Shown in pieces: positions 24,922 to 60,921 of a stretch of 64,000 bases of DNA. The position numbers and the translations under genes are program-made. Source of the stretch: a virus; the IMG/VR virus record IMGVR_UViG_3300029339_000415; one strand, 5' to 3'. Numbering within the stretch: the stretch's first letter is position 1; each line of letters begins with the position of its first letter. Under the pieces are notes generated by a model. It searched no databases and was not told the origin of the DNA. It saw nothing but the letters and a program-made list of their open reading frames with translations.

Positions 24922-25203
24922 TTGAGTAGATATAAGAACGGAAATCCAAAACATGCAAGTCGATTCATATGTTTAAAATGTATGCAAGAAAATATGTTAG
25001 CAAGAGGAATTCAGCGTAAGAAACAACGTGAGAAATTTCATATTAAAGATCTTACTTGTATATTATGCGGTGGAATTGAAACTAAAAATATGGAAGTAAG
25101 GTATTGTGATGATTATAAAGAGATTTATACAAAAGCATTAGAGAAAAGAGAGAATTATTATACAGGAGATTTTAGAAAGGTGGTTGATAATTATGTGTTA
25201 TAA
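24922..25203 (+). CDS. zinc-ribbon protein (93 aa)
   Basis: TTG start after SD TGAGGTGA; CLKC...CILCGG. Confidence 0.4.
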   Translation: MSRYKNGNPKHASRFICLKCMQENMLARGIQRKKQREKFHIKDLTCILCGGIETKNMEVRYCDDYKEIYTKALEKRENYYTGDFRKVVDNYVL

Positions 25204-26173
25204 AATAGAAGTCCAAAATAAAAATGCAGAGAAGCTTAACAGGAAGTTGGATGAGTTGAATCTTCCTATATATACGAGAAAATATTTCAGTGTTAAAATT
25301 GAAAGCAAAGCAGGTGCATTAAATTATCTTGGAGTTATTGTAGATTTGCTCAATTGGTTTATTGAAGAGAAACTTATTAATAAAACAAATATTTCAGATA
25401 TTGAGCCATCGGATTTTACAGATATCATGGCAGAAGATATTACATTATATTTAAAGACAAAAGAACAAAATGGAATGTCGCCAACTACATTAGAAACAAG
25501 GAAACATATTATAAGTAGCTTTTGGGATTATATGAGTAGAGTAAAGGGAACTGAAATTAAAGATGGATTCTTTAAAGATGTAACCTATAAGGGAATTCCA
25601 TCTGGAAATAATTTAACAAAAAAACTTCCAACAGAAAAGCAGCTTAATGATATGGAAGAGAAAATAATGTGGAAAAAGGATGAATGTGTAAGAAATAGGA
25701 ATATTGCTATCTTTCGAGTGTTAAGAGGAACTGGAATAAGAGAATCTGAACTTGCAGGTTTAGATTTGTCTAATTTGCATTTAAAAGAAGAAATGCCATA
25801 CATTACTATTCTTGGCAAAGGTGTGTACAGAGAACTGCAAAATAGAACAGTATATCTTAGTGGATCTGCTTTAAAAGCATTAAGAGAATGGTTAGAATAC
25901 AGAAGTACATTGAATAATGTTGTAGACAAAGAAGCTGTGTTTATAAATAAAAACGGTACACGTACAACAGAAAGAAATATTAAACAGATATTTGAAAATT
26001 ATGGCAATGGCATCACTCCACATATGATGCGACATTATTATGCCAGTATAATGAACAGAAATGGAAATCTTGCATTTGTACAGCAACAGCTTGGACATAG
26101 TAGTGTAAATACGACAGTTAATAATTATGCAAACGGAGCAGTGGGAATGAAAGATATATTAGACAATATGTGA
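25193..26173 (+). CDS. int: tyrosine site-specific recombinase / phage integrase
   Basis: C-terminal HMMRHYYAS...LGHSSVNTTVNNYAN matches Xer/phage integrase catalytic R-H-R-Y box; SD AAAGGTGG. Confidence 0.8.
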   Translation: MCYKIEVQNKNAEKLNRKLDELNLPIYTRKYFSVKIESKAGALNYLGVIVDLLNWFIEEKLINKTNISDIEPSDFTDIMAEDITLYLKTKEQNGMSPTTLETRKHIISSFWDYMSRVKGTEIKDGFFKDVTYKGIPSGNNLTKKLPTEKQLNDMEEKIMWKKDECVRNRNIAIFRVLRGTGIRESELAGLDLSNLHLKEEMPYITILGKGVYRELQNRTVYLSGSALKALREWLEYRSTLNNVVDKEAVFINKNGTRTTERNIKQIFENYGNGITPHMMRHYYASIMNRNGNLAFVQQQLGHSSVNTTVNNYANGAVGMKDILDNM

Positions 26174-28445: not shown

Positions 28446-30665
28446 ATGATTAATAAAGAGATGATGAGGATTATTAATAGTAATCCTGAGATGATGAAAA
28501 TCATTAATGATTATTCAGATGATGAAAACAAAAAATTAAAAAAATTATGTCACAAGATTTGGCTTGGGAAGATTGATATGTATGAATATGATGATTTATA
28601 TGATGTCGCTATACAATGCTTAATGGAATCTGTGTATAGTTTTAATTCAGAGAAAGCAAATTTTGAAACATATTTAACAGGAAACATTAAAAGAAAATTT
28701 GATACATGGATGCGAGATAATAGATTTCGACTAAAAAGAAATAATCTTGTCACGGATGAAAAAGGAAAAATAATTTATGACGAAAACGGCACTCCAACAA
28801 TAATTAAAAATATCTCATTAGATGCACATACGGAAGATGATAATAACTTAATAGAGAAATTAGATTCAGGAATAAATATAGAAGATGAATGTAAATTTAA
28901 TTTTGATTCTGATGAAAAAGTAGAAAAGTTTCTCAATTCATTATCTAAAATACAAAAAAATATCTTGCTTATGCGGATGGAGGATTTTCCTTCTGAGAAA
29001 ATCAAAGAAGAATTAGGTATTTCTAATGGAGAATATAACAGTGCAATGAAAGCAATAAAAATGAACAAAGGGCTTTCGATGTTCTCAATAAATAAAAATG
29101 ATGGTGGTTATAATATGGAGGTAAATATGGAAGATAGAATTATTGAAATTAGCGAATCTGAAAATTACAGAATGGATAAATATAGTATGTACTCGTTGTT
29201 ACAAGATAAAAAAAATGGGGATATGAATTGCAACTATATCTTGCAGCGTGAACCGTTTCAATGGAGTAAGGAAGAAGCAAATAGATATTTCTGTCGTATT
29301 CTTAGCAATCTTCCAATTCCTGAAATTATACTTTGTGAACAGAAGAAAAAGGGATTAACTATATCACATTTGATTGATGGATTGCAGAGACTTTCATATG
29401 CAGAAGCTTTTAAGGAGAATCGAATTAAGATTGGTTCGGCAGGAGCGGAAAGACACTTAATTCAGTATAGAGATTATGTTTTAGATGATAATGGAAATCG
29501 TGTGCCTGATGAAGAAGGATTTCCTGAGTATGAAATGAAAGTTTTTGATGTTATTGGAAAATATTATAAAGATTTACCAGATGAGTTAAAGAAAAGATTT
29601 AATAATTTTAATATTAATGTAACAAAGTTTTTTGATTGTACCGATGAGCAGATTGCCGATCATATTCGTGATTACAATAATCATGCAAGTATGAATAAAG
29701 AACAGGGTGGATTACTCAACGTATCAGCCGATATTGCTGGACATATTAAAAAGATTTCTCAAAAAAATTCATTTTTCAAAAACTGCGGTAAGTTTACAAA
29801 TAATAATTCAATTAAAGGAAAACTTGAAAGAGTTGTTGTTGAATCAATTATGTTGTTATTCTTTCGTGAATCGTGGAGAGCGAGTTTAGATTCGATTTAT
29901 AAATTCGTCAATGAAAATACAACAGAACAGCAATTTTTAAAATTGAATTCACAGTTTAACAGATTGGAACTAGCATTAGGTGATAATAACAAAGATTTAT
30001 CAAAGGAATTATTTACACCTACAACAATGCCAATGTGGATTTCAGTGTTTGATAAATTTACTACATATAATATAGAAGATAGTCGTTTCGTAGATTTCTT
30101 AAATGCATATAACATAGAACTCAAAGACAAAGAAATCAATGGTATATCAATGGCTGACTTTAAGGATCAACAGACCAAGAAAAAGACAACTATTGTAGGT
30201 AAGATTGATTTACTTATAAGGCTTATGAATGATTTTTTACATATTGATACAACTGAAACAGAGAATAATATAGAGTCTTCTGATAATAAGGTAATAAATG
30301 ATAATGAATCTGAACAGAATATGGGTTGCAATGATGAAATATTATCATTTGTTAAAAAAAATGTTGCTGATGATATAGAGGAGATTGATATAAAGGAATA
30401 CCAGGATTTCGTGGATGTGTATTTAAAAATAGACAACCCTCTCTATATACAATGTAAGGCTGCATTGATGGCACTAACGGCATATGCTTATAGAACCGAA
30501 AAAGATACTGAGTTGGCAACTTGGTTAGAAAATTATCAGAAGAATGCTATTGATAAGAATTATAGTCCATCACAAGATGTTAATTATAAGTATATTAAGA
30601 TGGATTTCGACAATTACATACATTATTTAGACAATATGAAAAAGGAGGAAATAGCCAATGCCTGA
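28446..30665 (+). CDS. ECF-type sigma factor (regions 2 and 4) fused to DUF262 (GmrSD N-terminal / ParB-like) domain
   Basis: region-2-like YDDLYDVAIQCLMESVYSFNSEKANFETYLTGNIKRKFDTWMRDNRF; region-4-like IQKNILLMRMEDFPSEKIKEELGISNGEYNSAMKAIKMN; DUF262 motif LIDGLQRLS; internal SD+ATG at 29127. Confidence 0.55.
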   Translation: MINKEMMRIINSNPEMMKIINDYSDDENKKLKKLCHKIWLGKIDMYEYDDLYDVAIQCLMESVYSFNSEKANFETYLTGNIKRKFDTWMRDNRFRLKRNNLVTDEKGKIIYDENGTPTIIKNISLDAHTEDDNNLIEKLDSGINIEDECKFNFDSDEKVEKFLNSLSKIQKNILLMRMEDFPSEKIKEELGISNGEYNSAMKAIKMNKGLSMFSINKNDGGYNMEVNMEDRIIEISESENYRMDKYSMYSLLQDKKNGDMNCNYILQREPFQWSKEEANRYFCRILSNLPIPEIILCEQKKKGLTISHLIDGLQRLSYAEAFKENRIKIGSAGAERHLIQYRDYVLDDNGNRVPDEEGFPEYEMKVFDVIGKYYKDLPDELKKRFNNFNINVTKFFDCTDEQIADHIRDYNNHASMNKEQGGLLNVSADIAGHIKKISQKNSFFKNCGKFTNNNSIKGKLERVVVESIMLLFFRESWRASLDSIYKFVNENTTEQQFLKLNSQFNRLELALGDNNKDLSKELFTPTTMPMWISVFDKFTTYNIEDSRFVDFLNAYNIELKDKEINGISMADFKDQQTKKKTTIVGKIDLLIRLMNDFLHIDTTETENNIESSDNKVINDNESEQNMGCNDEILSFVKKNVADDIEEIDIKEYQDFVDVYLKIDNPLYIQCKAALMALTAYAYRTEKDTELATWLENYQKNAIDKNYSPSQDVNYKYIKMDFDNYIHYLDNMKKEEIANA

Positions 30666-31419: not shown

Positions 31420-31581
31420 ATGTCAGTATTTTTTATATTAGTTCTAATAGGATTAATAATTCTATGGTTTCTACTGTCGCCTTTGTTTGTAAAAATTGGT
31501 GAATTTGTTATCAACATTATAAATAAGGTATTTTCGACAGATGAAATAAATAACAATGAAGAAAAGGAGACAAAAAGATGA
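31420..31581 (+). CDS. small membrane protein (53 aa)
   Basis: SD AAAAGGAGAA; VFFILVLIGLIILWFLL. Confidence 0.3.
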   Translation: MSVFFILVLIGLIILWFLLSPLFVKIGEFVINIINKVFSTDEINNNEEKETKR

Positions 31582-32444
31582 AGAAAGCAATTGGAGGAGT
31601 AGTAACAATAGTAGTAATTGTTGTTGCGGCAATATTATTACTAATATCAAGTGTGCGTGTACCTGCTGGATATATTGCTGTACAGTACAGTATGTCGGGT
31701 GGCGTAAAGGGCGATATTCTTACGCAGGGTTGGCATTTAAAGTCACCAACAGTAAAGACAACACTTTACTCGGTGAGTCTTGAACAGAGTTATTTAACAT
31801 CTGGTAAGGACGGAGACTCTAAGGACGATGATAGCTTTTCAGCAAGTTCATCTGAAGGTAAGGCTATGCAGATAGATCTTACATTTACATATCAGTATAG
31901 TCCTGATAAGGTAGCTGATTTATTTACAAGATTTAGAGGGCAGTCAGGTAAGGAAGTAAGAGACAGCTTTATTAAGCCTAATATTATTTCTTGGACTAAG
32001 GAAGTTGTTGCAAATTATAAGGTATCAGATATTCTTGGTTCTGAAAGAGCAAATGTAAATACGGCATTAACAGACTATCTTAGTAAGAAGTTTGAATCTT
32101 ATGGAATTGCAATTAGCAATGTTTCATTGATTAATATTTCCGTAGATGAAAAGACGCAGGAAGCTATTAATGCAAAGATTACAGCACAACAGGCAGCCGA
32201 AACTCAGGAGATTAATAATCAGACAGCTATTAATAAGGCAAAGGCAGATGCAGAGGTAACTAAAGCAGAAGCACAGGCTAAAGCCGATGCACAGCTTATA
32301 GAAGCTCAAGCACAGGCAGAAGCTAACAGTAAGTTAAGTTCTTCTATCACAGATGAACTTATAAGAATGAAGGAAGCAGAAGCAAGACTAGAACATGGCT
32401 GGGTTGAGATTCAGGGTGTCAATACTGTAGTTACCACAGATTAA
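31578..32444 (+). CDS. SPFH/band-7 (stomatin/prohibitin-like) membrane protein
   Basis: N-terminal TM; GYIAVQYSMSGGVKGDILTQGWHLKSP core; Ala/Gln-rich coiled-coil tail. Confidence 0.7.
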   Translation: MKKAIGGVVTIVVIVVAAILLLISSVRVPAGYIAVQYSMSGGVKGDILTQGWHLKSPTVKTTLYSVSLEQSYLTSGKDGDSKDDDSFSASSSEGKAMQIDLTFTYQYSPDKVADLFTRFRGQSGKEVRDSFIKPNIISWTKEVVANYKVSDILGSERANVNTALTDYLSKKFESYGIAISNVSLINISVDEKTQEAINAKITAQQAAETQEINNQTAINKAKADAEVTKAEAQAKADAQLIEAQAQAEANSKLSSSITDELIRMKEAEARLEHGWVEIQGVNTVVTTD

Positions 32445-32478
32445 TTCATAAAGGCGTGGTATAAATTCCACGCCGTAT

Positions 32479-32551
32479 GGATCATTAGCTTAATTGGTTA
32501 GAGCAACCGTCTCATAACGGTCGGTCATCTGTTCGAGTCAGATATGATCCA
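32479..32551 (+). tRNA. tRNA-like gene (probable tRNA-Met/Ile2, CAT) with irregular 16-nt anticodon arm
   Basis: 7-bp acceptor GGATCAT/ATGATCC, D-arm GCTT/GAGC, T-arm ATCTG-TTCGAGT-CAGAT, discriminator A; anticodon region ACCGT-CTCATA-ACGGT is one nt short of canonical. Confidence 0.5.
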
Positions 32552-32578
32552 TTAAAAATAAAAGAAAGGAACTAATAA

Positions 32579-33708: not shown

Positions 33709-35829
33709 ATGGAGAATATAACAATAGAAGCAATTAACAAAAATAAATATAAGAAAGAAGAGGTACAAAACATGGATGGATTTATGATGTTTAAGAAGGC
33801 TTTACAGAAGCACTTCGATGAAATGCAGAAAGAGGCAACACATTTATTTGAGGTAAATGTAGATAAGGATGAATTATGGAATACATATCTTGATAGCTTC
33901 CCTGCTGGTACAAATGAGATTTTCAGAGAGCGTAGAGAGCATGATTGTAGTTGTTGTAGACAGTTTATTAAGAATATTGGTTCTGCTGTCACTATCAAGG
34001 ATAACCAGATTCATACGATTTGGGAACTGAATCTTGGTGATACAACATATCAGCCAGTATGTGATGCACTTGATACTTTTGTAAAAGCTCATACAGTTAC
34101 AGATATTTATACAACTAAGTTCCCCAAAATTGGTACAGATTTTAACTTTGAGGAAATCAATGAAAAATCTCATCAGTGGGATCATTTCTTCTTAGAGCTT
34201 CCAAACAAGTTCGTAAATAGAAGTAGTCGTTCTAACGAGGAAGTTAAAGGACAGTTCAGAGATACAAGAAATGTATTTAAGCGTTCTCTCGATGAGATTA
34301 CTATGGAAGCACTTGATACAATTCTTGAACTTATCAATTCAAATACGCTTTACAAGGGCGAAGAGTGGAAAGGTGTACTCGCAGAGTTCAAGAAGTATAA
34401 GAAGGAATACGATAAGCTGACTTCTGATACTGAAAAGGATTTATATGCTTGGGAGAAGTCGGTAACAGCAGGTATGGCTATCGGTAGAATTAGAAATCAT
34501 TCTATTGGAACACTTCTTATTAATGTAAGTGAGGATATGGATCTTGACACAGCAGTTAAGAAGTATGAGCAGATTGTCGCTCCAAGCAATTATAAGCGTC
34601 CAAAGGCTATTTTTACAAAGAAGATGCTTGAGGATGCAAAGAAGACTATTACAGAACTTGGATATATGGATTCATTACAGAGAAGATTTGCTAATCTGAA
34701 TGATATTACTGTAAATAATGTATTGTTCTCAAACAAGAGTGCTGCAAGAAGAATGGTTGGTGCAGATGATATTTTTGGGCAGATGGAAAAAGATGTTGCT
34801 GTAAGTCCTAAGAAGTTTTCTAAGGTTGAGGAGATTTCAGCACAGGATTTCATTGATAAGGTACTTCCAACTGCAAAGGAGATTGAAGCTTTTGTAGAGA
34901 ATAAACATGAGAAGAATTTTGTTTCTATGATTGCATCTATTAATCCAGACGCTAAGACAATGTTCAAGTGGAACAATGGATTATCTTGGGCTTATTCAGG
35001 AAACATTACTGAGTCTGATATGAAACAGAATGTAAAAGCTGCTGGCGGTAATGTTGACGGTGTACTCAGATTTTCAATTCAGTGGAACGAAGACGGACAT
35101 GACAATTATGACCTTGATGCCCATTGTATTGAGCCAGATAAGAATGAAATTTTCTTTAGTAATTGTAGAAAGCCAAGTGTTTCAAGAATGGGTGGTCAGT
35201 TAGACGTTGATATTATTCATCCAGATGGAAAGGTTGCAGTAGAGAATATTACTTGGGAAGACCTGTCAAGAATGAAACCAGGTGTTTATAAGTTCTTTGT
35301 ACATCAGTATTCAGGAAGCGTAAGGCATGGATTTAGAGCTGAGATTGAATTTAATGGAGAAATTTACAAGTTTGATTACGATAAGTCGATGAGAACTGAT
35401 GAAAAGGTTCAGGTTGCAGAAGTAACACTCGATGAGAATGGAAACTTCTCAATTAAGGAGAAATTAGCAGGAAATTCATCTATTTCAAGCCGTGAGATTT
35501 GGGGTGTAAATACAAATCAGTTTGTTCCTGTATCAGTAATTAGTTATAGTCCAAATTATTTTGATGAGCAGGATGGAATTGGTCATAGGCATTTATTCTT
35601 CTTCCTGAAGGATTGTGTGAACAACGAAAGTCCTAATGGCTATTACAACGAGTTCTTAAAGAGTGACCTTGAAAAGCACAAGAGAGTATTTGAGGCTTTA
35701 GGTGCTAAGTGTCATGTAGAAGATACTGATGATCAGCTTTCAGGAATTGGATTTTCTATGACAAAGAGAGCAGATTTAGTTGTTAAGGTTAAGGGCGCAA
35801 CAGAGCGTGTAATGAAGATTAAGTTTTAA
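33709..35829 (+). CDS. large hypothetical protein (706 aa)
   Basis: longest non-fusion ORF in window; HDCSCCRQF motif near N-terminus; no family recognised by eye. Confidence 0.55.
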   Translation: MENITIEAINKNKYKKEEVQNMDGFMMFKKALQKHFDEMQKEATHLFEVNVDKDELWNTYLDSFPAGTNEIFRERREHDCSCCRQFIKNIGSAVTIKDNQIHTIWELNLGDTTYQPVCDALDTFVKAHTVTDIYTTKFPKIGTDFNFEEINEKSHQWDHFFLELPNKFVNRSSRSNEEVKGQFRDTRNVFKRSLDEITMEALDTILELINSNTLYKGEEWKGVLAEFKKYKKEYDKLTSDTEKDLYAWEKSVTAGMAIGRIRNHSIGTLLINVSEDMDLDTAVKKYEQIVAPSNYKRPKAIFTKKMLEDAKKTITELGYMDSLQRRFANLNDITVNNVLFSNKSAARRMVGADDIFGQMEKDVAVSPKKFSKVEEISAQDFIDKVLPTAKEIEAFVENKHEKNFVSMIASINPDAKTMFKWNNGLSWAYSGNITESDMKQNVKAAGGNVDGVLRFSIQWNEDGHDNYDLDAHCIEPDKNEIFFSNCRKPSVSRMGGQLDVDIIHPDGKVAVENITWEDLSRMKPGVYKFFVHQYSGSVRHGFRAEIEFNGEIYKFDYDKSMRTDEKVQVAEVTLDENGNFSIKEKLAGNSSISSREIWGVNTNQFVPVSVISYSPNYFDEQDGIGHRHLFFFLKDCVNNESPNGYYNEFLKSDLEKHKRVFEALGAKCHVEDTDDQLSGIGFSMTKRADLVVKVKGATERVMKIKF

Positions 35830-35850
35830 TTAGAAAAGGAGATTATTATT

Positions 35851-36240
35851 ATGACAAACAACGAATTATTTATTAATGCAACAAGAGCAAACTATCAGTT
35901 CCCATTCAGAGGGATGATTAATGTAATTGATTTGTGGGATTTATCTCTCACAAATCTGGACTCAGTATTTAAGACACTCAATGCAGAAGCAAAGAAGTCT
36001 GAGGAAGAGAGTCTTCTGAATACTAAGTCAAAGGAAGATGAGGAGATTTCTAACAAGATTGAAATTGTTAAGTATATTGTTGGCGTGAAGTTGGATGAGA
36101 AAAAGAAGAGAGAAGACGCTAAGAAAAATGCTGAGATGAGACAAAGATTGCTTGAAATCAAGGCTAAGAGACAGGATGCAGCACTTGAGAACATGTCTGA
36201 TGAGGATCTGGATAAGGCACTTGCAGAATTAAGTGAGTAA
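35851..36240 (+). CDS. hypothetical coiled-coil protein (129 aa)
   Basis: SD AAAAGGAGAT; KE-rich C-terminal half. Confidence 0.4.
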   Translation: MTNNELFINATRANYQFPFRGMINVIDLWDLSLTNLDSVFKTLNAEAKKSEEESLLNTKSKEDEEISNKIEIVKYIVGVKLDEKKKREDAKKNAEMRQRLLEIKAKRQDAALENMSDEDLDKALAELSE

Positions 36241-36251
36241 TTGTTACAAAT

Positions 36252-36296
36252 ATACCATATATAGTATTAATAAGCAATATATACTATATATGGTAT
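36252..36296. repeat. perfect 16-bp inverted repeat ATACCATATATAGTAT-N13-ATACTATATATGGTAT
   Basis: intergenic, upstream of nucleotidyltransferase gene. Confidence 0.6.
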
Positions 36297-36352
36297 ATAT
36301 TTTACGCTAGAAAGAAACGCACATTTCATTAGAATTTTTGGAGGTTAAGACA

Positions 36353-37381
36353 ATGACAATTGAACAGATTAAGGACAAATTAAAATCAAAAGAGTATGAC
36401 TTCCTGAGAACAGATAAGAATTTGGGTAACAATATCATTATCTTAACTCTTGGTGGAAGTCATGCATATGGAATGGATAAAGAAGGATCTGATTTAGATG
36501 TGAGAGGTATTGCACTCAACAGCAAATCAGATATTTTACTTGGAACAGATTTTGAACAGGTCGTAAATACCGATACAGACACCACAGTATATTCATTTAA
36601 CAAAATGATTCAGCTTCTTACATCGAATAATCCTAATACAATTGAACAACTCGGTTGTCTACCAGAACATTATTTGCATTTGTCTGATATTGGAAGAGAA
36701 CTTTTAGACAATAGAAAAATGTTTTTATCAAAAGTTTGTATTCATACTTTTGGTGGTTATTCGTCTTCACAGTTAAGACGCATGGAGAACAAAGCTGCAA
36801 GGTTAGTTGGTCAGGCAGAAAATGAAGCATATATTTTGAGAAGTATTAACAATGCTCAATATGAATTTAAAAATAGATATTATCCATACAATGAAAGTGA
36901 TTTGAAACTGTATATTGATAAAGCTGTTCAGGAAGGATATGACAGTGAAATTTTTATGGATGTAAATTTGAAACATTATCCATTAAGAGATTGGGCTGGA
37001 ATGTGGAACGAAATGAAATCCATTGTAAGTAGTTACAGTAAATTTGGCAAACGAAATGAAAAAGCAGTTGCTCATGATAAACTTGGTAAACATATGGCAC
37101 ATTTGATTCGTTTATATATGATGTGTATTGATATTCTTGAAAAAGAAGAAATTATTACGTATAGAGCAGACGAACATGATTTGTTAATGAGTATTAGAAA
37201 CGGAGAATATTTAGATGAGAATAGACAGCCTATTTCTGAGTTCTATGATTTATTGAATGAATATGAAAAACGTTTTGAATACGCAAAAGAAAATACATCT
37301 TTGCCTGATAAACCTGATTATAAGAAAATCAATGAATTTAAGATGTATGTAAATGAGAGAATTGTGAAAGGAGATATCTGA
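36353..37381 (+). CDS. Pol-beta superfamily nucleotidyltransferase (342 aa)
   Basis: ILTLGGSHAYGMDKEGSDLDVRGI = hG[GS]x9-13DhD motif. Confidence 0.55.
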   Translation: MTIEQIKDKLKSKEYDFLRTDKNLGNNIIILTLGGSHAYGMDKEGSDLDVRGIALNSKSDILLGTDFEQVVNTDTDTTVYSFNKMIQLLTSNNPNTIEQLGCLPEHYLHLSDIGRELLDNRKMFLSKVCIHTFGGYSSSQLRRMENKAARLVGQAENEAYILRSINNAQYEFKNRYYPYNESDLKLYIDKAVQEGYDSEIFMDVNLKHYPLRDWAGMWNEMKSIVSSYSKFGKRNEKAVAHDKLGKHMAHLIRLYMMCIDILEKEEIITYRADEHDLLMSIRNGEYLDENRQPISEFYDLLNEYEKRFEYAKENTSLPDKPDYKKINEFKMYVNERIVKGDI

Positions 37382-38343
37382 TGGAAATATCAAATAGAGC
37401 AAAAGAAAGATTCTGTAAGGATTGCAATATACCAATTAGATTATTCCAAGAGCCATATTTTTTAGATAGAATTAAGCTTTTTGATGAGTTCTATGGAACT
37501 GTTGACAAGTGGATTAGATTTGCAAGCGAATTACAGGGGTATAATTGTGAGCAGGATTATTTTGAAGAATATAATCATGTAAAGGATGCAGCTATTACAA
37601 GTATCAAAGAGTCAGAGGCATATCAGAGATTTAATGCGGAAGATATGAACAAATTCACTGTGATTCATAAAAATTTATCTAATAAAGATATATTTAAGCC
37701 AACTAATACTGGAAGAGTTTTTATCAGTATTGATATGAGAAAGGCTAATTTTTCATCTTTACACGAATATGATAAGAATATATTTCGTGGGACTGATACA
37801 TGGGAAGATTTTATTTCTCAATTCACGGATAACGAACATATTGCAAATAGTAAATATATTCGTCAGGTAATTTTGGGTAATTGCAATCCCAAAAGACACA
37901 TCACCTATGAAAAGTACCTTATGGATCAGACATTATCGTTATTATATGACATCATTGGTGAAGAGAGAATTGTATTCTTTTCAAATGATGAGATTGTTTA
38001 TGATATGACAACAGCAAGTAATTTGCACATGTTAAATCTTGTGAGAAATTGTGTTGAAGAAAGATTAAGTACAAAATCTAATATTCCATTCAGAGTTGAA
38101 TTATTTTCGCTCCACAAAATCAATGGTACTGACGGATACTGTAAGAAAATCTATAAAGAAAATGGAAAATATAGTATTGAGTTTAAGTGTTTGGATAATT
38201 ATATAATGCCATTCGTACTTAGATACTTCTTGGGAGAAGAAGTAACTGAAAGTGACAAGGTATTCTACCACGAAGGGTTGCTTGCAAAGTTTATTGATAT
38301 ACCAAAAATTGAGGTGAATTTGAATGAAGAAATTGAAAATTGA
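37381..38343 (+). CDS. hypothetical protein (320 aa)
   Basis: overlapping start/stop ATGA with upstream gene. Confidence 0.45.
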   Translation: MEISNRAKERFCKDCNIPIRLFQEPYFLDRIKLFDEFYGTVDKWIRFASELQGYNCEQDYFEEYNHVKDAAITSIKESEAYQRFNAEDMNKFTVIHKNLSNKDIFKPTNTGRVFISIDMRKANFSSLHEYDKNIFRGTDTWEDFISQFTDNEHIANSKYIRQVILGNCNPKRHITYEKYLMDQTLSLLYDIIGEERIVFFSNDEIVYDMTTASNLHMLNLVRNCVEERLSTKSNIPFRVELFSLHKINGTDGYCKKIYKENGKYSIEFKCLDNYIMPFVLRYFLGEEVTESDKVFYHEGLLAKFIDIPKIEVNLNEEIEN

Positions 38344-39733
38344 AATTCCATCTGGTGCAAATGAAATTATCCATAGTCTACAAAATAATGGATATGAAGC
38401 TTTCTTAGTCGGAGGATGTGTGAGAGATAGTATTCTTGGCAGACCAATTCACGATTATGACATTACAACTTCTGCCACACCAGATGAAATGATGGAAGTA
38501 TTCAAGGACAAGAGAATTATTGAAACTGGTTTGCAACATGGAACTATTACCATTGTAATTGACGGTGAAGGATATGAATGTACAACTTACAGAATTGATG
38601 GTAATTACTCAGATAGTCGTAGACCTGATAGCGTAACATTTACACGAAGTCTTAAAGAAGATTTAAAGCGTAGAGATTTTACAATCAATGCGATGGCATA
38701 CAATGATGAAGTTGGTCTTGTAGATTCGTTTAATGGCATGGAAGATATTGAGCATTATAAAATCAGATGTGTTGGTAGAGCAGAGGATAGATTTTCAGAA
38801 GATGCTTTAAGGATTTTACGTGCTATTCGGTTTGCTTCACAACTGGGATTTGTGGTTGATTCTGACGTAAGTTTGAATATTCATAAAATGTATAAGAATT
38901 TAGAGAATATATCTATTGAGAGAATCAACAGTGAGTTCTGTAAGATTGCATTATCAAGCGAGTTTTATATACAGATAGGATTATTCCGTGAAGTATTTTC
39001 GTTATTTATCCCTGAAATAAAAGATATGTTTGATTTTCCACAGAATAATCCATATCACATCTATGATGTATGGGGACATACAATTCATGCAGTAGAAGCT
39101 TATGAATGTGATTGTGAACCCGACTTGAATCCAAGAGATTTAATTACGTCATTGGCTGTATTTTTTCATGATATTGGAAAGCCACATTGTTATCAAGATG
39201 GCGAAGATGGTATTAGACATTTTAAAAGTCATGGAAAAGTCAGTGCTGATATGACTGATACAATTATGAAAAGACTTCGTTTTGATAATGATACAAGAGA
39301 AAAGGTTGTTGGATTAGTCTATTATCATGATGCAACTTTTGAAGTGGGTGAAAAGTATATCAAGAGATGGCTCAATAAGATTGGAGAAAAACAATTTAGA
39401 AGATTACTGAATGTTCGTAGAGCAGATATTAAAGCGCAGGCTTATACAGAGCAAGAGAGTAGGCTTCAGAAAATTGACAACATCAAATATATCTTAGAGG
39501 AAGTTTTACAGAAAGACGAATGTTTCTCACTGAAAGATTTGGCTGTTAATGGCAATGATTTGATTGAGATCGGATATAAGCCAGGAAAAGAAATAGGGAA
39601 TACACTGAATTGTCTTTTGCAGTTAGTAATTGAAGGTGTATATCTAAACGAGAAAAGTGAGTTACTTAAATATATTGAAACAACAAAAGAATGGATGAAG
39701 TTAGGAGAGAATTATAATGGTAAGATTATTTAG
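38324..39733 (+). CDS. cca: class II CCA-adding enzyme / tRNA nucleotidyltransferase with HD domain
   Basis: head motif FLVGGCVRDSILGRPIHDYDITT; HD motif FFHDIGKP. Confidence 0.75.
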   Translation: MKKLKIEIPSGANEIIHSLQNNGYEAFLVGGCVRDSILGRPIHDYDITTSATPDEMMEVFKDKRIIETGLQHGTITIVIDGEGYECTTYRIDGNYSDSRRPDSVTFTRSLKEDLKRRDFTINAMAYNDEVGLVDSFNGMEDIEHYKIRCVGRAEDRFSEDALRILRAIRFASQLGFVVDSDVSLNIHKMYKNLENISIERINSEFCKIALSSEFYIQIGLFREVFSLFIPEIKDMFDFPQNNPYHIYDVWGHTIHAVEAYECDCEPDLNPRDLITSLAVFFHDIGKPHCYQDGEDGIRHFKSHGKVSADMTDTIMKRLRFDNDTREKVVGLVYYHDATFEVGEKYIKRWLNKIGEKQFRRLLNVRRADIKAQAYTEQESRLQKIDNIKYILEEVLQKDECFSLKDLAVNGNDLIEIGYKPGKEIGNTLNCLLQLVIEGVYLNEKSELLKYIETTKEWMKLGENYNGKII

Positions 39734-40643
39734 CCACAGTGATTTAGACGGAATTGGTTGTGGTATTTTAGCACAACTTGCATTTGGTAAAGATAATGTA
39801 GAAATTTCATATTGTGATTACGACAATATTGATTCAACTGTAAAGGAATATTTGGAAACAGAACAGGACGACACAATCCCAATTTATATTACCGATATTC
39901 GTGTTAATGAAGAAACCGCTGAGTTGCTGAATAAAAGAGGCAATGTTCAGTTATTAGATCATCATCCAACAGCTCTTGGATTGAATAAGTATGATTGGTG
40001 TGATGTAGTTATTGAAGATTCCAAAGGAATTAAAACATCGGGAACTATGTTGTTTTATCATTGGTTAGGTATGAATGGTTGTCTGAGTGAAGAGTTAGAG
40101 AATAATAAAGCGTTAGAGAGATTTGCTGAACTTGTGAGAGATTACGACACTTGGAGATGGTCAGAACTTGGTGAAGATGGTGTTATTTGTAAGCAGGTGA
40201 ACGATTTACTTTATCTGTATGGTCGAGATGATTTTATTCATTGGTGTATTTCAGAAATCCATGATGAGGTATTCCCAAGATTATATGCTAAAGATGAGGT
40301 TATTCTGAAGATTAAGCAGGATGAAATTGATAGATATATCGAAGAGAAGAATAAAACTATGTTTACCAGTCCTATGTGCGGTAAGGTTTGTGGTTTTGTA
40401 TTTGCAGATAGATTTGTTAGTGAATTAGGTAATAGACTTTGTAAAATGCATCCTGAAATTGATTTTGTGGCTATGATTGATATTGATGGTTGTACGGTAT
40501 CTTATAGAACCGTTAAAGAAGATATTGATCTTGGTAAAGATGTAGCAAGTTTATTTGGTGGCGGTGGTCATCCAAAAGCTGCTGGTTCAGAATTTAGTCA
40601 GAGTATTAAGTTGAAAGTTATTGAGGAAATCTTTGGACAGTGA
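39717..40643 (+). CDS. DHH/DHHA1 phosphoesterase (NrnA-like oligoribonuclease / pAp phosphatase)
   Basis: HSDLDGIGCG, LLDHHPT (DHH) and LFGGGGHPKAAG (DHHA1) motifs. Confidence 0.7.
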   Translation: MVRLFSHSDLDGIGCGILAQLAFGKDNVEISYCDYDNIDSTVKEYLETEQDDTIPIYITDIRVNEETAELLNKRGNVQLLDHHPTALGLNKYDWCDVVIEDSKGIKTSGTMLFYHWLGMNGCLSEELENNKALERFAELVRDYDTWRWSELGEDGVICKQVNDLLYLYGRDDFIHWCISEIHDEVFPRLYAKDEVILKIKQDEIDRYIEEKNKTMFTSPMCGKVCGFVFADRFVSELGNRLCKMHPEIDFVAMIDIDGCTVSYRTVKEDIDLGKDVASLFGGGGHPKAAGSEFSQSIKLKVIEEIFGQ

Positions 40644-40652
40644 GGTTAGAAT

Positions 40653-40862
40653 ATGAAAATTATTGTAGATAAAATGCCAGATGAACCAAAAGAATGCATC
40701 TTTTCTGAATGTACAAATCAGTTGCGTGGTAATTATGCATGTAATTTATACCAAGGAAGAGGATGTGAACCTAATAGATGCGATTTTTTAAAGCCAATTA
40801 CAGATTATCATGCGGTTGAACATATGGGTGATAATATAGCGAGAATGATACCAATAGAATGA
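40653..40862 (+). CDS. hypothetical Cys-rich protein (69 aa)
   Basis: SD TGAGGTTAGAA. Confidence 0.4.
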   Translation: MKIIVDKMPDEPKECIFSECTNQLRGNYACNLYQGRGCEPNRCDFLKPITDYHAVEHMGDNIARMIPIE

Positions 40863-40872
40863 GGTGAAATAA

Positions 40873-41316
40873 ATGACGTATAGAGAAGAAAATAAAGACT
40901 TATTTACAGTACCAGAAAATTATTATTTAGCACATTGTATTAGTGCAGATTTTGGAATGGGTAAAGGGATTGTAGTTGAATTCAATAAAAGATTTGATAT
41001 GAAACGAAAATTACAGACAAAATATCCAGATTATCTTAATCAGTATACTCATAAGAGAATTGGTGGTGACTGTCTATTAGAGGGTAGGGTATTAAATCTT
41101 ATTACAAAAGAGAGATATTTTCACAAACCAACAATTATCACAATGAGACTTGCACTTGAAAAGATGAAACAGATTTGTTTAAAGAATAATATCAAAAAGA
41201 TTGCAATGCCTGTAATTGGTTGTGGTTTAGATAGGTTGAACTGGAATGATGTCTCAGAACAAATTAAAAATGTTTTTGCAGATACGGATATTGAGATTTT
41301 AGTGTGTAAGAGGTGA
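40873..41316 (+). CDS. macro domain protein, TARG1/OARD1 (DarG-macro)-like ADP-ribose hydrolase
   Basis: LAHCISADFGMGKGIVVEF and AMPVIGCGLDRLNWNDV closely parallel TARG1 motifs LAHCISEDCRMGAGIAVLF and SMPRIGCGLDRLQWENV. Confidence 0.7.
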   Translation: MTYREENKDLFTVPENYYLAHCISADFGMGKGIVVEFNKRFDMKRKLQTKYPDYLNQYTHKRIGGDCLLEGRVLNLITKERYFHKPTIITMRLALEKMKQICLKNNIKKIAMPVIGCGLDRLNWNDVSEQIKNVFADTDIEILVCKR

Positions 41317-41319
41317 ATT

Positions 41320-42093
41320 ATGGCAGTATATGTAACAGGTGATATACATGGAAATCCTACACGATTAAGTAAAGATAGTTTCTATGAACAGAAAGATTTT
41401 TCTGGTAATAAAGATGAGAACACTGTAATTATTCTTGGTGATTTTGGTCTTGTATGGAATCGAGATGGAGAAAGTAAACAGGAAAAATATTGGTTGGATT
41501 GGTTAAATCAGAAACCATTCACAATTGTATTTGTTGATGGAAATCACGAGAATCATAAAAGACTTGCAACTTATTCTGTAAAAGAGTGGCGTGGCGGTAA
41601 GGTTCATGAAGTCAGATCTAATATATTGCATTTAATGCGTGGCGAAGTGTTTACCATTGAAAATAAGAAATTCTTTGCATTTGGCGGTGCATCAAGTCAT
41701 GATATTCAGGATGGCATTCTTGATTACAATGATGAAAATTGGAGAGAAGAAGCTAAGAAACTTGATAATCACGGTAAGTATATGTATCGCATAAAAGATT
41801 TATCTTGGTGGGAAGAGGAATTACCAACAGATGAAGAGATGCAGCATGGATTAGATGTTTTAAAAGAGAATAATAATTTAGTCGATTATATTATTACGCA
41901 TAGTCCTTCTACATCTGAATTATATCTTATGGGCGGTAAGTGGTTGTATAAACCAGATGTGTTGACTAATTATTTGGAAGAAGTGAAAGCTGCAACTGAA
42001 TACAAAAAACATCTGTTTGGTCATATGCATTTGAATAAGGCAATCAATCACAGAGATATTTGTTTGTATGAACAGATTATTAGAATATTGTAA
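41320..42093 (+). CDS. calcineurin-like metallophosphoesterase
   Basis: GDIHG, ILGDFG, VDGNHENH, FGHMH motifs. Confidence 0.7.
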   Translation: MAVYVTGDIHGNPTRLSKDSFYEQKDFSGNKDENTVIILGDFGLVWNRDGESKQEKYWLDWLNQKPFTIVFVDGNHENHKRLATYSVKEWRGGKVHEVRSNILHLMRGEVFTIENKKFFAFGGASSHDIQDGILDYNDENWREEAKKLDNHGKYMYRIKDLSWWEEELPTDEEMQHGLDVLKENNNLVDYIITHSPSTSELYLMGGKWLYKPDVLTNYLEEVKAATEYKKHLFGHMHLNKAINHRDICLYEQIIRIL

Positions 42094-42497: not shown

Positions 42498-42563
42498 AGA
42501 ATAATCTAATATAGAAGTAATTCTATTCAAAGGCTGGTCAGCCAAATTAAGCGAGGTGATAAA

Positions 42564-42863
42564 GTGAAGAAATATTGGGAAACAGGTGAAAAGAATAAAT
42601 TTGGTAAGGAATGTTATAAATTACATTTTAGTCAATTTTATGAAGAAGATGATAAAAATGTAGTAGCTGGTTTTGTACAAGATGAGACAGACGAAAACAT
42701 ATTTATATATGTATCAAAAGAATTAAATGTTGAATATGATACATTGTTTGCAGACAGTATAGAAGATGCAAAGCATCGAATTGAAGAGATGTTAATAGAC
42801 CATTGGAATGAAGAGATTGATTATTTAGAAAATCGAATTAAATCATTTCAAGGCGAAGAATAA
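42564..42863 (+). CDS. hypothetical protein (99 aa)
   Basis: GTG start after SD GCGAGGTGA; flanked by similar GGCTGGTCAGCCAAATT / GGCGATTCAGCCAAATT hairpins. Confidence 0.4.
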   Translation: MKKYWETGEKNKFGKECYKLHFSQFYEEDDKNVVAGFVQDETDENIFIYVSKELNVEYDTLFADSIEDAKHRIEEMLIDHWNEEIDYLENRIKSFQGEE

Positions 42864-43056
42864 TCATATATAGAAATTTCTATCTTGGCGATTCAGCCAA
42901 ATTTTCCAAATAAAAGTAACAAGAATTATTTTTTCCTATGGTTTTAGCAGACGTGTTAATTCCATAGGATTTTACAACAAAATAATTAAGAAGAAAGGAA
43001 TTAAGCAGTAACTCCTAGGTAATTATGGTTACGTGACCTCTGTAAAATAGTATATT

Positions 43057-44025
43057 TTGACAGAGAATAATGAAAAAAATAATTATTGTGAGCTTAATGG
43101 ACGACCATTGCGTTTATTAATAGGTGGTTCACCTTGTACATTTTGGTCGATCTCACAATCACCCGAAAGAAGAGAAACCACTTGTGAAGGTACAGGATGG
43201 GAATTATTTAAAAATTATTTAATTACGAAAGAAAAATGGCAACCAGATATATTTTTATATGAGAACAACGAAAGTATATCAAAAGAAATTCAAAAAGAAA
43301 TCGAAAAACGATTAAATGTTAATCTATTACATATCAACAGTGCATTATTATCAGCACAAACTCGACATCGTATCTATGCTACTAATATCAATATTGATCC
43401 AAAAAATATTATAGATAAGGGTATAAGAGTGAAAGATATTCTTGATGTTAAATTCCATAAAGAAAACTTAATAAATGAGGTCAAATTTAATAACAGAGAT
43501 GATACTAAGGATAACAATAAACTTGTTAGAATTGGCACTATTGGTAAAGGTGGACAAGGTGAAAGAGTATATTCCATAAATGGTAAATCATGCACTTTGT
43601 CTGCCAATGGTGGTGGAAGAGGTGCAAAAACTGGATTGTATCTTATCAATGGAGAAGTAAGAAAATTAAATCCCTTAGAAGCAGAAAGATTACAGACGTT
43701 ACCTGATAATTATACATTATGTAATGGTGTTCCTGAAACGCAGCGTTATAAAAGTATTGGTAATGGATGGACGTCAGAGGTAATTATTCATATTTTAAAT
43801 CAGGGATTAAAGAATGTTCCACGAGATTATCCTATTGAAGTTCTAAGCTTATATGATGGTATTGCTACTGGTAGATATTGTTTAGAAAAAATGGGATTTA
43901 CAAATATTATATATAAAGCGTATGAAATAGATAAATATGCTATGAATGTTGCCACATATAATTATCCAGATATTGAAGAGTGTGGCGATGTATTCCAGGT
44001 TAGAAATGATGATTGGGAATATTAA
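43057..44025 (+). CDS. DNMT3-like DNA (cytosine-5) methyltransferase, circularly permuted (motifs IV-X then I-III); start codon uncertain
   Basis: LLIGGSPCTFWS (IV), EGTGWELF, FLYENNES (VI), QTRHRIYATN (VIII), ERLQTLPDNYT, GNGWTSEVIIHIL (X), then PIEVLSLYDGIATG (I) and GDVFQVRNDDWEY at C-terminus; no in-frame ATG, TTG 43057 overlaps a TTGACA -35-like hexamer, no SD. Confidence 0.55.
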   Translation: MTENNEKNNYCELNGRPLRLLIGGSPCTFWSISQSPERRETTCEGTGWELFKNYLITKEKWQPDIFLYENNESISKEIQKEIEKRLNVNLLHINSALLSAQTRHRIYATNINIDPKNIIDKGIRVKDILDVKFHKENLINEVKFNNRDDTKDNNKLVRIGTIGKGGQGERVYSINGKSCTLSANGGGRGAKTGLYLINGEVRKLNPLEAERLQTLPDNYTLCNGVPETQRYKSIGNGWTSEVIIHILNQGLKNVPRDYPIEVLSLYDGIATGRYCLEKMGFTNIIYKAYEIDKYAMNVATYNYPDIEECGDVFQVRNDDWEY

Positions 44026-44098
44026 ATAGAGAATAACATAAAAGGAAGGAGTAAGAGGTTTGGTATACCGAAAACGCAGCGTTTACTCCTGATATATA

Positions 44099-44824: not shown

Positions 44825-44890
44825 AGCGGAATTTCTTCTGAGTTCAGAGAACAAATACATATAAAAAATAAAGAAAAGAGGATTAAATAT

Positions 44891-45196
44891 ATGAGTAAAG
44901 CTGTTTTAGTGATGAACATGCCTGAAACTTGTTGTGATTGTAATTTTTGTAGAGAAATACAAGAAGGTATCGAAGCATGTTGTGAATTAATGGATGAGCC
45001 AAATGATAATACTCTTTGTAGAATGGTTGATAGTAAAAATGGATATTGTCAAGAAAAACCAAGTTGGTGTCCATTAAAAGAATTACCAGAAGAGACTCAC
45101 AATGATGAATATATGGATGAATATTGTGATGGTTATGATAATGGTTGGAACTCATTAAGAAAGGAAATTTTAGGCGAAGATGAGGAGAATAAGTAG
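44891..45196 (+). CDS. hypothetical Cys-rich acidic protein (101 aa)
   Basis: SD AAAGAGGATTA; CCDCNFC motif. Confidence 0.4.
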   Translation: MSKAVLVMNMPETCCDCNFCREIQEGIEACCELMDEPNDNTLCRMVDSKNGYCQEKPSWCPLKELPEETHNDEYMDEYCDGYDNGWNSLRKEILGEDEENK

Positions 45197-45742: not shown

Positions 45743-45781
45743 GAATCATAGATTTCTTAGTGGTTATAAAGGAGTATTTCG

Positions 45782-47249: not shown

Positions 47250-47250
47250 T

Positions 47251-59829: not shown

Positions 59830-60921
59830 ATGAAAGACATTAAGATTGTATGTGGATCGAATTGGGGAGACGAAGGAAAAGGTTTAATGACAGATTATTT
59901 CTCACAGAAACCTAATAGTATTGTTGTTTGTTCAAATGGTGGTGCTCAGAGAGGACATACCGTAACGACTCCTGACAGAATCAGACATGTCTTTCATCAT
60001 TTTGGATCTGGAACATTCAATAATGCAAGTACATATTTATCTGAGGATTTTATTGTTAATCCAATTATTTTTAAGCAGGAATATGATGAATTGATGAAAT
60101 TAGGATATGTCCCAAATGTTTATATCAATCAAGATTGTATGTTGACTACACCTTTTGATATGATGGCAAATCAGATTATAGAGGAAAATCGTGGAAAAAA
60201 TAAACATGGTAGTTGTGGCTTGGGAATTTTTGAAACTATCAAAAGATATAAAGCTGGCATAACTGATGTAGATAATCAAATCAGAGAATATTACTTAGAA
60301 CAATTTGAAAGAGAGAATATTATATTAACAGATGAATGGTCAAGAATATTCTTTGATAATGGTATATTTGAACACTTTTTAGATGATTGGGATTTTATGA
60401 ATAATCACTCATTGGCTATATCAGATAATTATTTCTTAAATCAATTTGACAATATTGTATTTGAAGCTGCACAAGGTTTATTACTTGATCAGAACAACAC
60501 AGAATATTTCCCACATCTAACACCGTCTAATACAGGTATTAAAAATCCCAAGAGAATAATTGAAAATGTTGAATGGAATGAAGAAATAAATATTGAAACT
60601 TGTTATGTATCTCGTACTTATTTAACAAGACATGGTGTTGGCAAATTTCCATCTGAATGTAATAAGAGATTTATCAATGAATATATGTTTGATAAAACAA
60701 ATGTGCCAAACCCATTCCAGGATACATTGAGATATGGAACACTTGATTTAGGAGAATTATATAGTAGATGCTCTAATGATATAGGAAATTTTGGAGATAA
60801 AAAATCAATCGCCATTACACATTGTAATGAATATGATTGGGATAATGATAAGTTGATTGAGTTATTCAAGGATTGGACCATTTATTACTCAGATGGCGAA
60901 ACACATAATGATGTGAACTGA
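59830..60921 (+). CDS. adenylosuccinate-synthetase (PurA) family enzyme, short form; candidate PurZ-like
   Basis: P-loop GSNWGDEGKGL, GGAQRGHTV, FEAAQGLLLD, SRTYLTRHGVGKFPSE; only 363 aa; PurA guanine-specificity TKLDVLD replaced by ITHCNEYD. Confidence 0.65.
   Translation: MKDIKIVCGSNWGDEGKGLMTDYFSQKPNSIVVCSNGGAQRGHTVTTPDRIRHVFHHFGSGTFNNASTYLSEDFIVNPIIFKQEYDELMKLGYVPNVYINQDCMLTTPFDMMANQIIEENRGKNKHGSCGLGIFETIKRYKAGITDVDNQIREYYLEQFERENIILTDEWSRIFFDNGIFEHFLDDWDFMNNHSLAISDNYFLNQFDNIVFEAAQGLLLDQNNTEYFPHLTPSNTGIKNPKRIIENVEWNEEINIETCYVSRTYLTRHGVGKFPSECNKRFINEYMFDKTNVPNPFQDTLRYGTLDLGELYSRCSNDIGNFGDKKSIAITHCNEYDWDNDKLIELFKDWTIYYSDGETHNDVN

Follow-up and report, generated by a model that had tools for sequence, protein, structure and literature searches.

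Positions 36353-42093 of a 64,000-nucleotide stretch of viral DNA (IMG/VR record IMGVR_UViG_3300029339_000415; the whole stretch is called the window here) encode a row of enzymes related to RNA-end and ADP-ribose processing, which raises the question of whether these genes form one functional unit and, if not, which of them belong together. An initial annotation had read six of them as a single counter-defence module. Our comparison with related loci led to a different view: with a probability of roughly 55%, the stretch is composite, made of a conserved core (36353-40643) and a variable accessory tail (40653-42093). In this reading, the core, which encodes RlaP, an unnamed protein of 320 amino acids (aa), a CCA-adding enzyme and a DHH phosphoesterase, is a conserved, translationally coupled operon that would restore usable 3' ends on tRNAs, and the 320-aa protein is, judging from its predicted model, a minimal right-hand (palm plus fingers) polymerase-like nucleotidyltransferase. 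This polymerase-like family is the new element of the block, and its gene is the most interesting one.

Layout and co-conservation of the block

The block consists of seven consecutive open reading frames (ORFs) at 36353-42093, all co-directional on the + strand, and is preceded by an inverted repeat:

36243..36305, no strand: inverted repeat, arms of 25 nt (88% complementary), spacer of 13 nt, upstream of RlaP
36353..37381, + strand: RlaP-family Pol-beta nucleotidyltransferase, 342 aa; leads the conserved core
37381..38343, + strand: unnamed 320-aa protein, polymerase-like (palm plus fingers) by its predicted fold; member of a large unnamed family
38324..39733, + strand: class II CCA-adding tRNA nucleotidyltransferase with a C-terminal HD domain, 469 aa; Pfam, NCBIfam and PDB matches
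39717..40643, + strand: DHH/DHHA1 phosphoesterase, 308 aa; PHROG matches, intact motifs
40653..40862, + strand: Cys-rich ORF, 69 aa, between the DHH and macro genes
40873..41316, + strand: stand-alone TARG1/DarG-type macro domain, 147 aa; variable accessory gene
41320..42093, + strand: binuclear metallophosphoesterase, 257 aa; variable accessory gene

The six genes of the initial annotation were all found on the + strand at the positions assigned to them, and their family calls are supported by Pfam, PHROG, NCBIfam and PDB matches. The families thus stood, but the count did not, because the 69-aa ORF at 40653-40862, which is annotated as a gene in the relatives L001-L006, had been missed. The reading frames of the core overlap (RlaP and the 320-aa gene by 1 nt, the 320-aa and CCA genes by 20 nt, the CCA and DHH genes by 17 nt), and the later genes, after DHH, are separated by gaps of 3-14 nt with no overlaps. 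The inverted repeat lies in the 112-nt gap between a phrog_2018 gene and RlaP, and its half-site occurs once in the window at up to two mismatches. It may delimit the operon, serving as a terminator or an operator. A promoter and terminator scan of 31-45 kb revealed no excess over shuffled controls.

We compared 125 loci collected by tblastn and 131 collected by an iterative hidden Markov model (HMM) search. Dereplication was based on the 320-aa protein alone, and the IMG/VR and assembly loci overlap in lineage. Of the 121 loci with enough upstream sequence, 98 have RlaP as the direct neighbour of the 320-aa gene, which corresponds to 22 of 37 lineages (<80% identity) or 41 of 58 after dereplication at 95%. 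The respective counts were 10/37 and 23/58 for an adjacent CCA gene, 6/37 and 17/58 for the presence of DHH, 3/37 and 7/58 for a downstream metallophosphoesterase, and 1/37 and 3/58 for a downstream macro gene. All six genes occurred together in 1/37 lineages, the window's own, and in 3/58 at 95%, indicating that they are not one co-conserved unit, contrary to what had been proposed. Co-conservation in related phages holds for the first two to four genes and fails for the 69-aa ORF, the macro gene and the metallophosphoesterase gene. These last three vary even where the 320-aa protein is 93-97% identical; homologues of the 69-aa ORF were found in 15 loci only, and in L051-L054 and L058 macro or metallophosphoesterase homologues lie upstream instead. 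The four-gene core recurs at ~60-64% identity in L058, L069, L070, L088 and L089, the last two being contigs of Lachnospiraceae isolates (~64% identity). A short version, RlaP–320-aa–DHH without CCA and with DHH directly after the 320-aa gene, was seen in L073-L078, L081 and L082. Divided in this way into a conserved core and swappable anti-defence cargo, the block shows which genes belong together for deletion work.

The 320-aa protein and its genomic company

The 320-aa protein had no match in Pfam, PHROGs, NCBIfam, PADLOC or PDB sequences, whether the single sequence or a 42-member profile was used, and the sole traces in profile and sequence searches with the family were hints of IMS and RVT_1 at E-values of 0.02-0.03. 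Relatives numbered 1,570 among 90% clusters and at least 1,583 among 50% representatives, and none in these cluster sets carried a name or a precomputed Pfam domain. A protein search returned three records, one of them gene 208 of Salicola phage SCTP-2, annotated as hypothetical. A check for domain fusions in ten longer members of the family turned up no known domains, except for AAA_lid_2 on P0001, a suspected gene-calling fusion.

The AlphaFold2 model of the protein (predicted local distance difference test score, pLDDT, 83; predicted template-modelling score, pTM, 0.77) comprises a helical N-terminal region, a strand at 113-119, a helical insertion and a beta hairpin at 197-208, followed by a helix at 215-232, three further strands and C-terminal helices. 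Its best structural matches were family B and Y DNA polymerases at 10-12% identity; GGDEF cyclases (about 7) and RNA-dependent RNA polymerases were also matched. Much closer matches were retrieved when Foldseek was run against viral models (best E-value 6e-14, TM-score up to 0.78, identity 14-23%). These were uncharacterised giant-virus proteins: 'R3H domain proteins' of Hyperionvirus, Klosneuvirus and Barrevirus, proteins of Clandestinovirus, Pandoravirus, Tupanvirus and Moumouvirus, and a Medusavirus protein annotated as a DEDDy exonuclease.

Across 42 diverse family members, F27, R161, E204 and D292 were invariant, and D118, N123, F124, S157, K158, G166, D203 and K269 were conserved in at least 90%. 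In the predicted model, D118 is located at the end of the first palm strand (113-119) and the D203-E204 pair on the 197-208 hairpin. In right-hand polymerases these positions are taken by metal ligands, which makes the three acidic residues candidate metal ligands. The model thereby displays the features that define the right-hand palm superfamily, namely a predicted RRM-like palm in which strand 1 ends in an acidic residue and the hairpin of strands 2 and 3 carries others. Two more specific assignments were rejected. A family B DNA polymerase would be expected to have PolB motifs, an N-terminal exonuclease and a thumb, and the protein fails on both sequence motifs and architecture; relationship to Thg1 received an hhalign probability of 0.2%. 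No palm or PolB-like partner of RlaP was described in the literature that we searched, including PMC7824862.

Where RlaP is absent or distant, the neighbours of the 320-aa gene were identified by Pfam. They include Ro60/TROVE (L123; in L122 also Thg1 and tRNAs), a PHA02142-type RNA ligase together with Thg1 (L113), an RNA ligase (L104), a Pnkp-type protein with kinase, Metallophos and Rnl1 domains (L066), a metallophosphoesterase after a 19-tRNA array (L125) and an ABC_ATPase/MRB1590 protein (L119). By eye, we also recognized PTH2-like genes after the 320-aa gene (L054, L197) and Fmt- and YqeY-like genes flanking it (L121). Homologues are often found beside tRNA genes or arrays (L070, L104, L122, L125), and many loci with the RlaP–320-aa pair have no tRNA gene within 8-10 kb. 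In a tally over these neighbour sets, about 26 of the 37 lineages had one or more markers of RNA or tRNA repair within 8-10 kb. Guilt by association strongly ties the family to tRNA/RNA repair. The loose alignments A2 and A6 were too divergent for locus scans, and a re-scan of IMG/VR that started from a distant family member returned mostly the same contigs. It is possible, and we put this forward tentatively, that the 320-aa protein founds a widespread family of minimal right-hand polymerases dedicated to RNA repair with RlaP. That family might, as tentatively, comprise at least 1,500 clusters at 50% identity, spread over large phages, prophages, some bacteria and giant viruses.

The partner enzymes, the tail and the setting of the element

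The first protein of the core was assigned to the RlaP family by PF10127 (E-value 3e-21, 76.7 bits versus a gathering cutoff of 23) and by phrog_388, 'nucleotidyltransferase' (4e-48); no solved chain matched it by sequence. The catalytic signature of the Pol-beta superfamily, G-S followed by D-x-D, can be read from its translation as G35-S36 and D47-L-D49. The family is named after its neighbourhood with RNA ligase; tblastn over the 64-kb window and Pfam on its larger ORFs revealed no such ligase. RlaP homologues add one or two nucleoside monophosphates to RNA 3'-OH ends in vitro, prefer nicked tRNA mimics or damaged RNA ends and are inactive on DNA; their authors noted a mismatch between the products of RlaP and RtcB (PMC12776372). 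The RNA 3'-end activity that the initial annotation ascribed to RlaP and the CCA family is therefore supported (PMC12776372).

The 469-aa protein combines a PolyA_pol head (PF01743, 1.9e-38), PF13735 (tRNA_NucTran2_2) and an HD domain (PF01966, 26 bits versus a cutoff of 22), and it scored 315 bits against a cutoff of 290 with the NCBIfam equivalog NF009814, 'CCA tRNA nucleotidyltransferase'. The closest solved enzymes are 6ibp and 1miv (~1e-60). The motifs GGxVRD, DxD, RRD and EDxxR are visible in the translation, and PcnB models remained far below their cutoffs. CCA-adding specificity, as opposed to A- or CC-adding or poly(A) synthesis, is probable from family-level knowledge. The 308-aa protein was matched by phrog_26954 (8e-30) and phrog_4771 (2e-24), whereas Pfam DHHA1 (21.8 bits) fell under its cutoff of 25.9; D9-x-D11, D60, D81-H82-H83 and GGGGH were read from the translation. 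The name 'NrnA-like' given to it earlier goes beyond the evidence, since no NCBIfam NrnA model matched and the best PDB sequences were archaeal RecJ2 (E-value 0.003) and TM1595 (0.14).

About 4 kb upstream of the core lie two further features:

31578..32444, + strand: SPFH/Band-7 gene (PF01145, 6e-26)
32478..32552, + strand: tRNA(CAU)-like gene (ARAGORN; Rfam tRNA, 57.8 bits)

The tRNA(CAU)-like gene starts 34 nt past Band-7, has no encoded CCA and has an aberrant anticodon loop, in that its anticodon stem-loop forms only a 6-nt or 8-nt loop. Alignment and folding against the tRNA-Met of the relative L015 revealed a 1-nt deletion. A special 'tRNA-like' cofactor was considered as a possible identity of the gene. 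It looks like a tRNA-Met with this deletion, and relatives carry ordinary tRNAs: Band-7 followed by tRNA-Gln(UUG), in some cases accompanied by tRNA-Lys(UUU) or tRNA-Met. The tRNA genes of most sampled loci likewise lack an encoded CCA, two in L104 having one. Burroughs and Aravind reportedly linked Band-7 modules and tRNA-like RNA to RNA repair in 2016.

In the accessory tail, the 69-aa ORF had no family matches in Pfam or PHROGs. The macro domain matched human TARG1/OARD1 (4j5r) at an E-value of 6e-28, DarG models of PADLOC and NCBIfam at 9e-16 and 3e-12, and the PhiKZ protein gp104 (AdfM) at 6e-7 with 25% identity. Its K79 ('ITKE') and D120 ('GCGLDRL') align to K84 and D125 of TARG1, residues said to have been assigned catalytic roles by Sharifi et al. 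in 2013. With both residues aligned, the earlier call of a TARG1-like macro domain is upheld. The protein is not a DarG antitoxin: it has only 147 aa, scored 46 bits against a cutoff of 250 and lacks the DarT-binding C-terminal domain, and the flanking genes are the 69-aa ORF and the metallophosphoesterase gene, not darT. AdfM, the nearest phage analogue that has been studied by experiment, is a stand-alone DarG2-like macrodomain that removes the ADP-ribose placed on DNA by DarT2 (PMC13309987), and AdfN is its NADAR counterpart (PMC11825919). Judging from sequence, the window's macro protein is most likely a TARG1/DarG-type ADP-ribosyl hydrolase, an orphan de-ADP-ribosylase like AdfM.

The last protein of the block was matched by phrog_1649 (4e-36), PF00149 is precomputed on its homologues, and it carries the motifs D8-x-H10, G40-D41, G74-N75-H76 and G-H235-x-H237. 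The initial annotation had assigned it to the Pnkp-type end healers. Its fold, however, is closest to Dbr1 and MPPED2; lambda phosphatase ranked 44th, and no significant similarity to Pnkp was found (E-value 0.44), which places its closest relatives outside the Pnkp/lambda-phosphatase clade. Dbr1 has Cys instead of the Asp of the first metal motif, as well as a lariat-recognition loop and a C-terminal domain. The window protein has the canonical first motif G-D8-I-H10 and 257 aa versus at least 349 in Dbr1, and we therefore regard the match to Dbr1 as a fold resemblance only.

Downstream of the block, positions 42500-50000 form a variable island with C5, N6/N4 and Dam-type DNA methyltransferase genes. 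The close relatives L002, L005 and L006 carry genes for NAMPT/NAPRTase, a PncA-like isochorismatase nicotinamidase, a PRPP-synthetase-like protein, NMNAT, NAD synthase (NadE) and NADAR, and these genes for reconstitution of nicotinamide adenine dinucleotide (NAD), together with NADAR, were not found in the window. The downstream anti-defence island of the relatives fits a block tail made of swappable counter-defence cargo.

The window is AT-rich (~31% GC) with a strong positive GC skew, and its + strand carries nearly all long ORFs. An identical CCA protein occurs in 158 blocks of an assembly index, on contigs of up to 394 kb, and the IMG/VR relatives are mostly 90-190 kb contigs from human gut samples. 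Homologues of the 320-aa protein at 58-65% identity were found in Lachnospiraceae genome contigs, isolates included (Eubacterium plexicaudatum ASF492, Lachnospiraceae bacterium A4, Lacrimispora amygdalina). These homologues, and the tyrosine integrase encoded within the window, identify the element as a large phage or prophage, ~150-190 kb, of Lachnospiraceae-type gut Firmicutes. A nucleotide search of GenBank phages with the block gave short 67-72% matches only, to unannotated faecal phage contigs, and an exact-sequence look-up of two other window proteins matched no record. Other features of the window are the following:

25184..26173: tyrosine integrase
28446..30665: 739-aa protein, weakly matched by sigma-70 region 2
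within 33709..36240: 706-aa protein, phrog_1735, precomputed PF26675 (DUF8224)
within 33709..36240: 129-aa protein, phrog_2018
59830..60921: adenylosuccinate-synthetase-like protein of only 363 aa; PF00709 (9e-36), PurA structures (~1e-17)

The 706-aa and 129-aa genes immediately precede RlaP, an arrangement confined to the lineage of the window, and a TnpB/Cas12f-like (OrfB_IS605) gene lies at the upstream edge of the locus in two close relatives (L003, L004; 287-1675). In its size and phage setting, the 363-aa PurA-like protein recalls PurZ of 2-aminoadenine (Z-genome) phages; the ORFs next to it, at 58315-59812 and 61250-61897, had no Pfam match.

Proposed RNA 3'-end restoration, rival explanations and known systems

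The proposed function of the core follows from its parts. The DHH and HD phosphoesterases would remove blocking 3' or 2',3'-cyclic phosphates, or trim damaged or extra 3' nucleotides. The palm enzyme and RlaP would add back lost nucleotides, an activity shown for homologues of RlaP and suggested for the palm enzyme by its fold and acidic residues; more speculatively, the palm enzyme could carry out a templated fill-in of a recessed acceptor-stem 3' strand. The CCA enzyme, as its family does, would complete the CCA tail. Maturation of the phage's own tRNAs, which have no CCA in their genes, would be a further task of the same core enzymes. In the tail, the macro protein would de-ADP-ribosylate as an orphan AdfM-like factor, next to a putative Dbr1/MPPED2-like metallophosphodiesterase.

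Neither tblastn of the 64-kb window with queries from relatives nor Pfam on 30 window ORFs detected a ligase, polynucleotide kinase (PNK), Pnkp, Thg1 or TROVE. With no RNA ligase found in the window, its genes can rebuild ends but not seal breaks, and a module of this kind would act ligase-free, leaving the sealing of anticodon-loop breaks outside its reach. Repair of PrrC/RloC-type breaks, which had been suggested for the block, could not be completed by the genes found, as these include no ligase or PNK. In the relative L126 (3671-6567), a cassette of an HNH endonuclease, an RNA ligase (PF09414) and a polynucleotide kinase falls between window positions ~51948-52943, with a Thg1 gene further downstream. 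This ligase occurs in 146 IMG/VR contigs; among the 80 that were listed, the 320-aa gene is present as well in at least 9. From the position and distribution of the cassette we concluded that the ligase is a separate, variable module. Burroughs and Aravind reportedly defined in 2016 an RNA-repair 'syntax' of a ligase, a nucleotidyltransferase, end-modifying enzymes and a scaffold. The window offers nucleotidyltransferases, phosphoesterases and, 4 kb upstream, Band-7 with its tRNA, and no ligase or kinase was found in it, so that the syntax is incomplete.

Several observations weigh against the reading that we prefer. The 320-aa family is known from sequence, predicted fold and genomic context alone. 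The resemblance of its D-M-x-K-A-N-F-S, S-K-Y-I-R-Q-V-I-x-G and N-D-E segments to polymerase motifs A, B and C, respectively, is a suggestion from reading by eye, not a computed alignment. The window is part of a genome, so a ligase may lie elsewhere, and some relatives have an HNH–RNA ligase–PNK cassette 15-19 kb away. Finally, a minority of the contexts of the 320-aa gene are uninformative or DNA-related. On a Lachnospiraceae chromosome (L093, 8001-8960) it stands alone, by eye between rlmH-like and ruvA/B-like genes; elsewhere its neighbour is NADAR (L103, L106), and a family member at 7413-8912 of L103/L114, a 499-aa ORF with ~190 unassigned aa added at the N-terminus, lies next to a NADAR gene; and in L281 (2608-7403) a Metallophos gene comes first, followed by those of a NAD-dependent DNA ligase (LigA), RlaP and the 320-aa protein. 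This order, the LigA-like proteins recognized by eye upstream in L191 and L196, and the family B and Y DNA polymerases among the best structural matches are what one would cite for DNA-end repair, in which the 320-aa protein would be a small DNA polymerase working with nucleases and ligases on phage DNA. We consider this highly improbable, given that RlaP is inactive on DNA and that the recurrent neighbours are CCA, Thg1, RNA ligases and TROVE.

Maturation of tRNAs could by itself account for the CCA enzymes of phages that bear tRNA genes, and the core might serve for housekeeping only, maturing phage tRNAs by CCA addition and trimming with no response to host attack. The lack of CCA in the phage tRNA genes of the window's lineage and of most sampled loci, and the frequent location of 320-aa homologues beside tRNA genes, agree with this. 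We nevertheless find it unlikely: the host already carries a CCA enzyme, many RlaP–320-aa loci have no tRNA gene nearby, other lineages have the repair genes Pnkp, RNA ligase, TROVE and Thg1 as neighbours, and RlaP, which has links to repair ligases, acts preferentially on damaged RNA ends (PMC12776372, PMC7824862). Another point against our reading is that signalling nucleotides could instead be what the DHH protein and the metallophosphoesterase break down. In its full form, such an explanation has DHH, metallophosphoesterase and macro proteins destroying immune messengers (cyclic oligonucleotides, 2'-5'-linked nucleotides, ADP-ribose derivatives), with RlaP and CCA as unrelated neighbours. 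Counter-signal enzymes of this sort were proposed by Iyer et al. 2021 (PMC7824862), the metallophosphoesterase fold resembles the cyclic-nucleotide phosphodiesterase MPPED2 and the 2'-5' phosphodiesterase Dbr1, and NAD reconstitution and NADAR downstream in relatives are typical anti-defence cargo. The DHH gene, however, shows translational coupling to CCA, and in distant lineages it again stands right behind the 320-aa gene, for which reasons it fits an RNA module better, and signal destruction appears to us rather improbable. The last rival retains all six genes as one co-evolving counter-defence cassette for RNA-end repair and ADP-ribose removal, with Pnkp-type healing by the metallophosphoesterase. 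The genes are indeed co-directional and tightly spaced, the six-gene string is identical in many samples of the window's lineage (L001-L006), and metallophosphoesterase homologues recur near RlaP and the 320-aa gene elsewhere (L090, L054, L281). With the complete set confined to one lineage, tail genes lost or replaced among close relatives, and a metallophosphoesterase fold unlike that of Pnkp, this cassette is very unlikely, and we retain the composite reading, a tRNA 3'-end repair core with a variable tail.

Phage and bacterial RNA repair has so far been seen as 'heal the ends, then ligate', and RlaP has been characterised only recently. Its most faithful genomic partner turns out to be an unnamed polymerase-like protein from a very large family outside the domain databases. 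Were the 320-aa protein active on RNA, it would be a new enzyme class in RNA repair. The core would then provide a ligase-free route for restoring tRNA 3' ends, which are targets of several anti-phage toxins, and, through templated acceptor-stem fill-in, a 5'-3' counterpart to the Thg1-type repair of 5' ends.

Comparison with known enzymes places the parts of the block as follows. With family B and Y DNA polymerases, the 320-aa protein shares a predicted palm with a fingers insertion, an acidic residue on strand 1, the D-E pair on the hairpin and a conserved K-x2-R on the fingers helix; it differs in its small size of 320 aa and in having no exonuclease domain, no detectable sequence similarity and an RNA-repair rather than a replication context. 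Thg1 and Thg1-like 3'-5' polymerases are likewise small palm-domain enzymes of tRNA end repair, and they share neighbourhoods with the 320-aa gene (L113, L054, L126). The metallophosphoesterase belongs to the same binuclear superfamily as Pnkp and lambda phosphatase and has the same metal-binding motifs. Like AdfM, the DarG2 macrodomain and TARG1, the macro protein has a TARG1-type fold with the catalytic lysine, here in a stand-alone phage gene without a toxin partner; it shares only 25% identity with AdfM, and its sequence is nearer to that of TARG1. The window's RlaP shares PF10127 and the Pol-beta fold with PfRlaP and PaRlaP of Pseudomonas and with T4 NrdC.11 (Carruthers et al. 2025, PMC12776372), but Pseudomonas rlaP lies between rtcB and rtcA, whereas the window's gene is coupled to those of the palm protein and the CCA enzyme.

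The closest known system is the RNA repair of jumbo phages and bacteria, reportedly catalogued by Burroughs and Aravind in 2016. Iyer et al. 2021 (PMC7824862) named RlaP as the 'most prevalent' nucleotidyltransferase there, mirroring ligases, and also listed CCA enzymes, calcineurin-like and HD phosphatases, macro proteins, DHH phosphodiesterases and Thg1. In view of this account the concept of phage RNA repair is not new: repair with these families is already described, and it is standard to read such genes of large phages as counter-defence (PMC7824862). The combination that the initial annotation did not recognize as a described unit consists of families (RlaP, CCA, calcineurin-like, DHH, macro) that are all listed there among jumbo-phage RNA-repair or NAD-conflict genes. 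The window and the jumbo-phage systems share the same list of parts, accompanied by phage tRNAs, and the same proposed purpose of countering host attack on tRNA. Jumbo-phage repair, however, is built on an RNA ligase (RtcB, Rnl1 or Rnl2), usually with a PNK, neither of which was found in the window, and the partner of RlaP in the window is a palm-polymerase-like protein that the account of Iyer et al. 2021 does not include.

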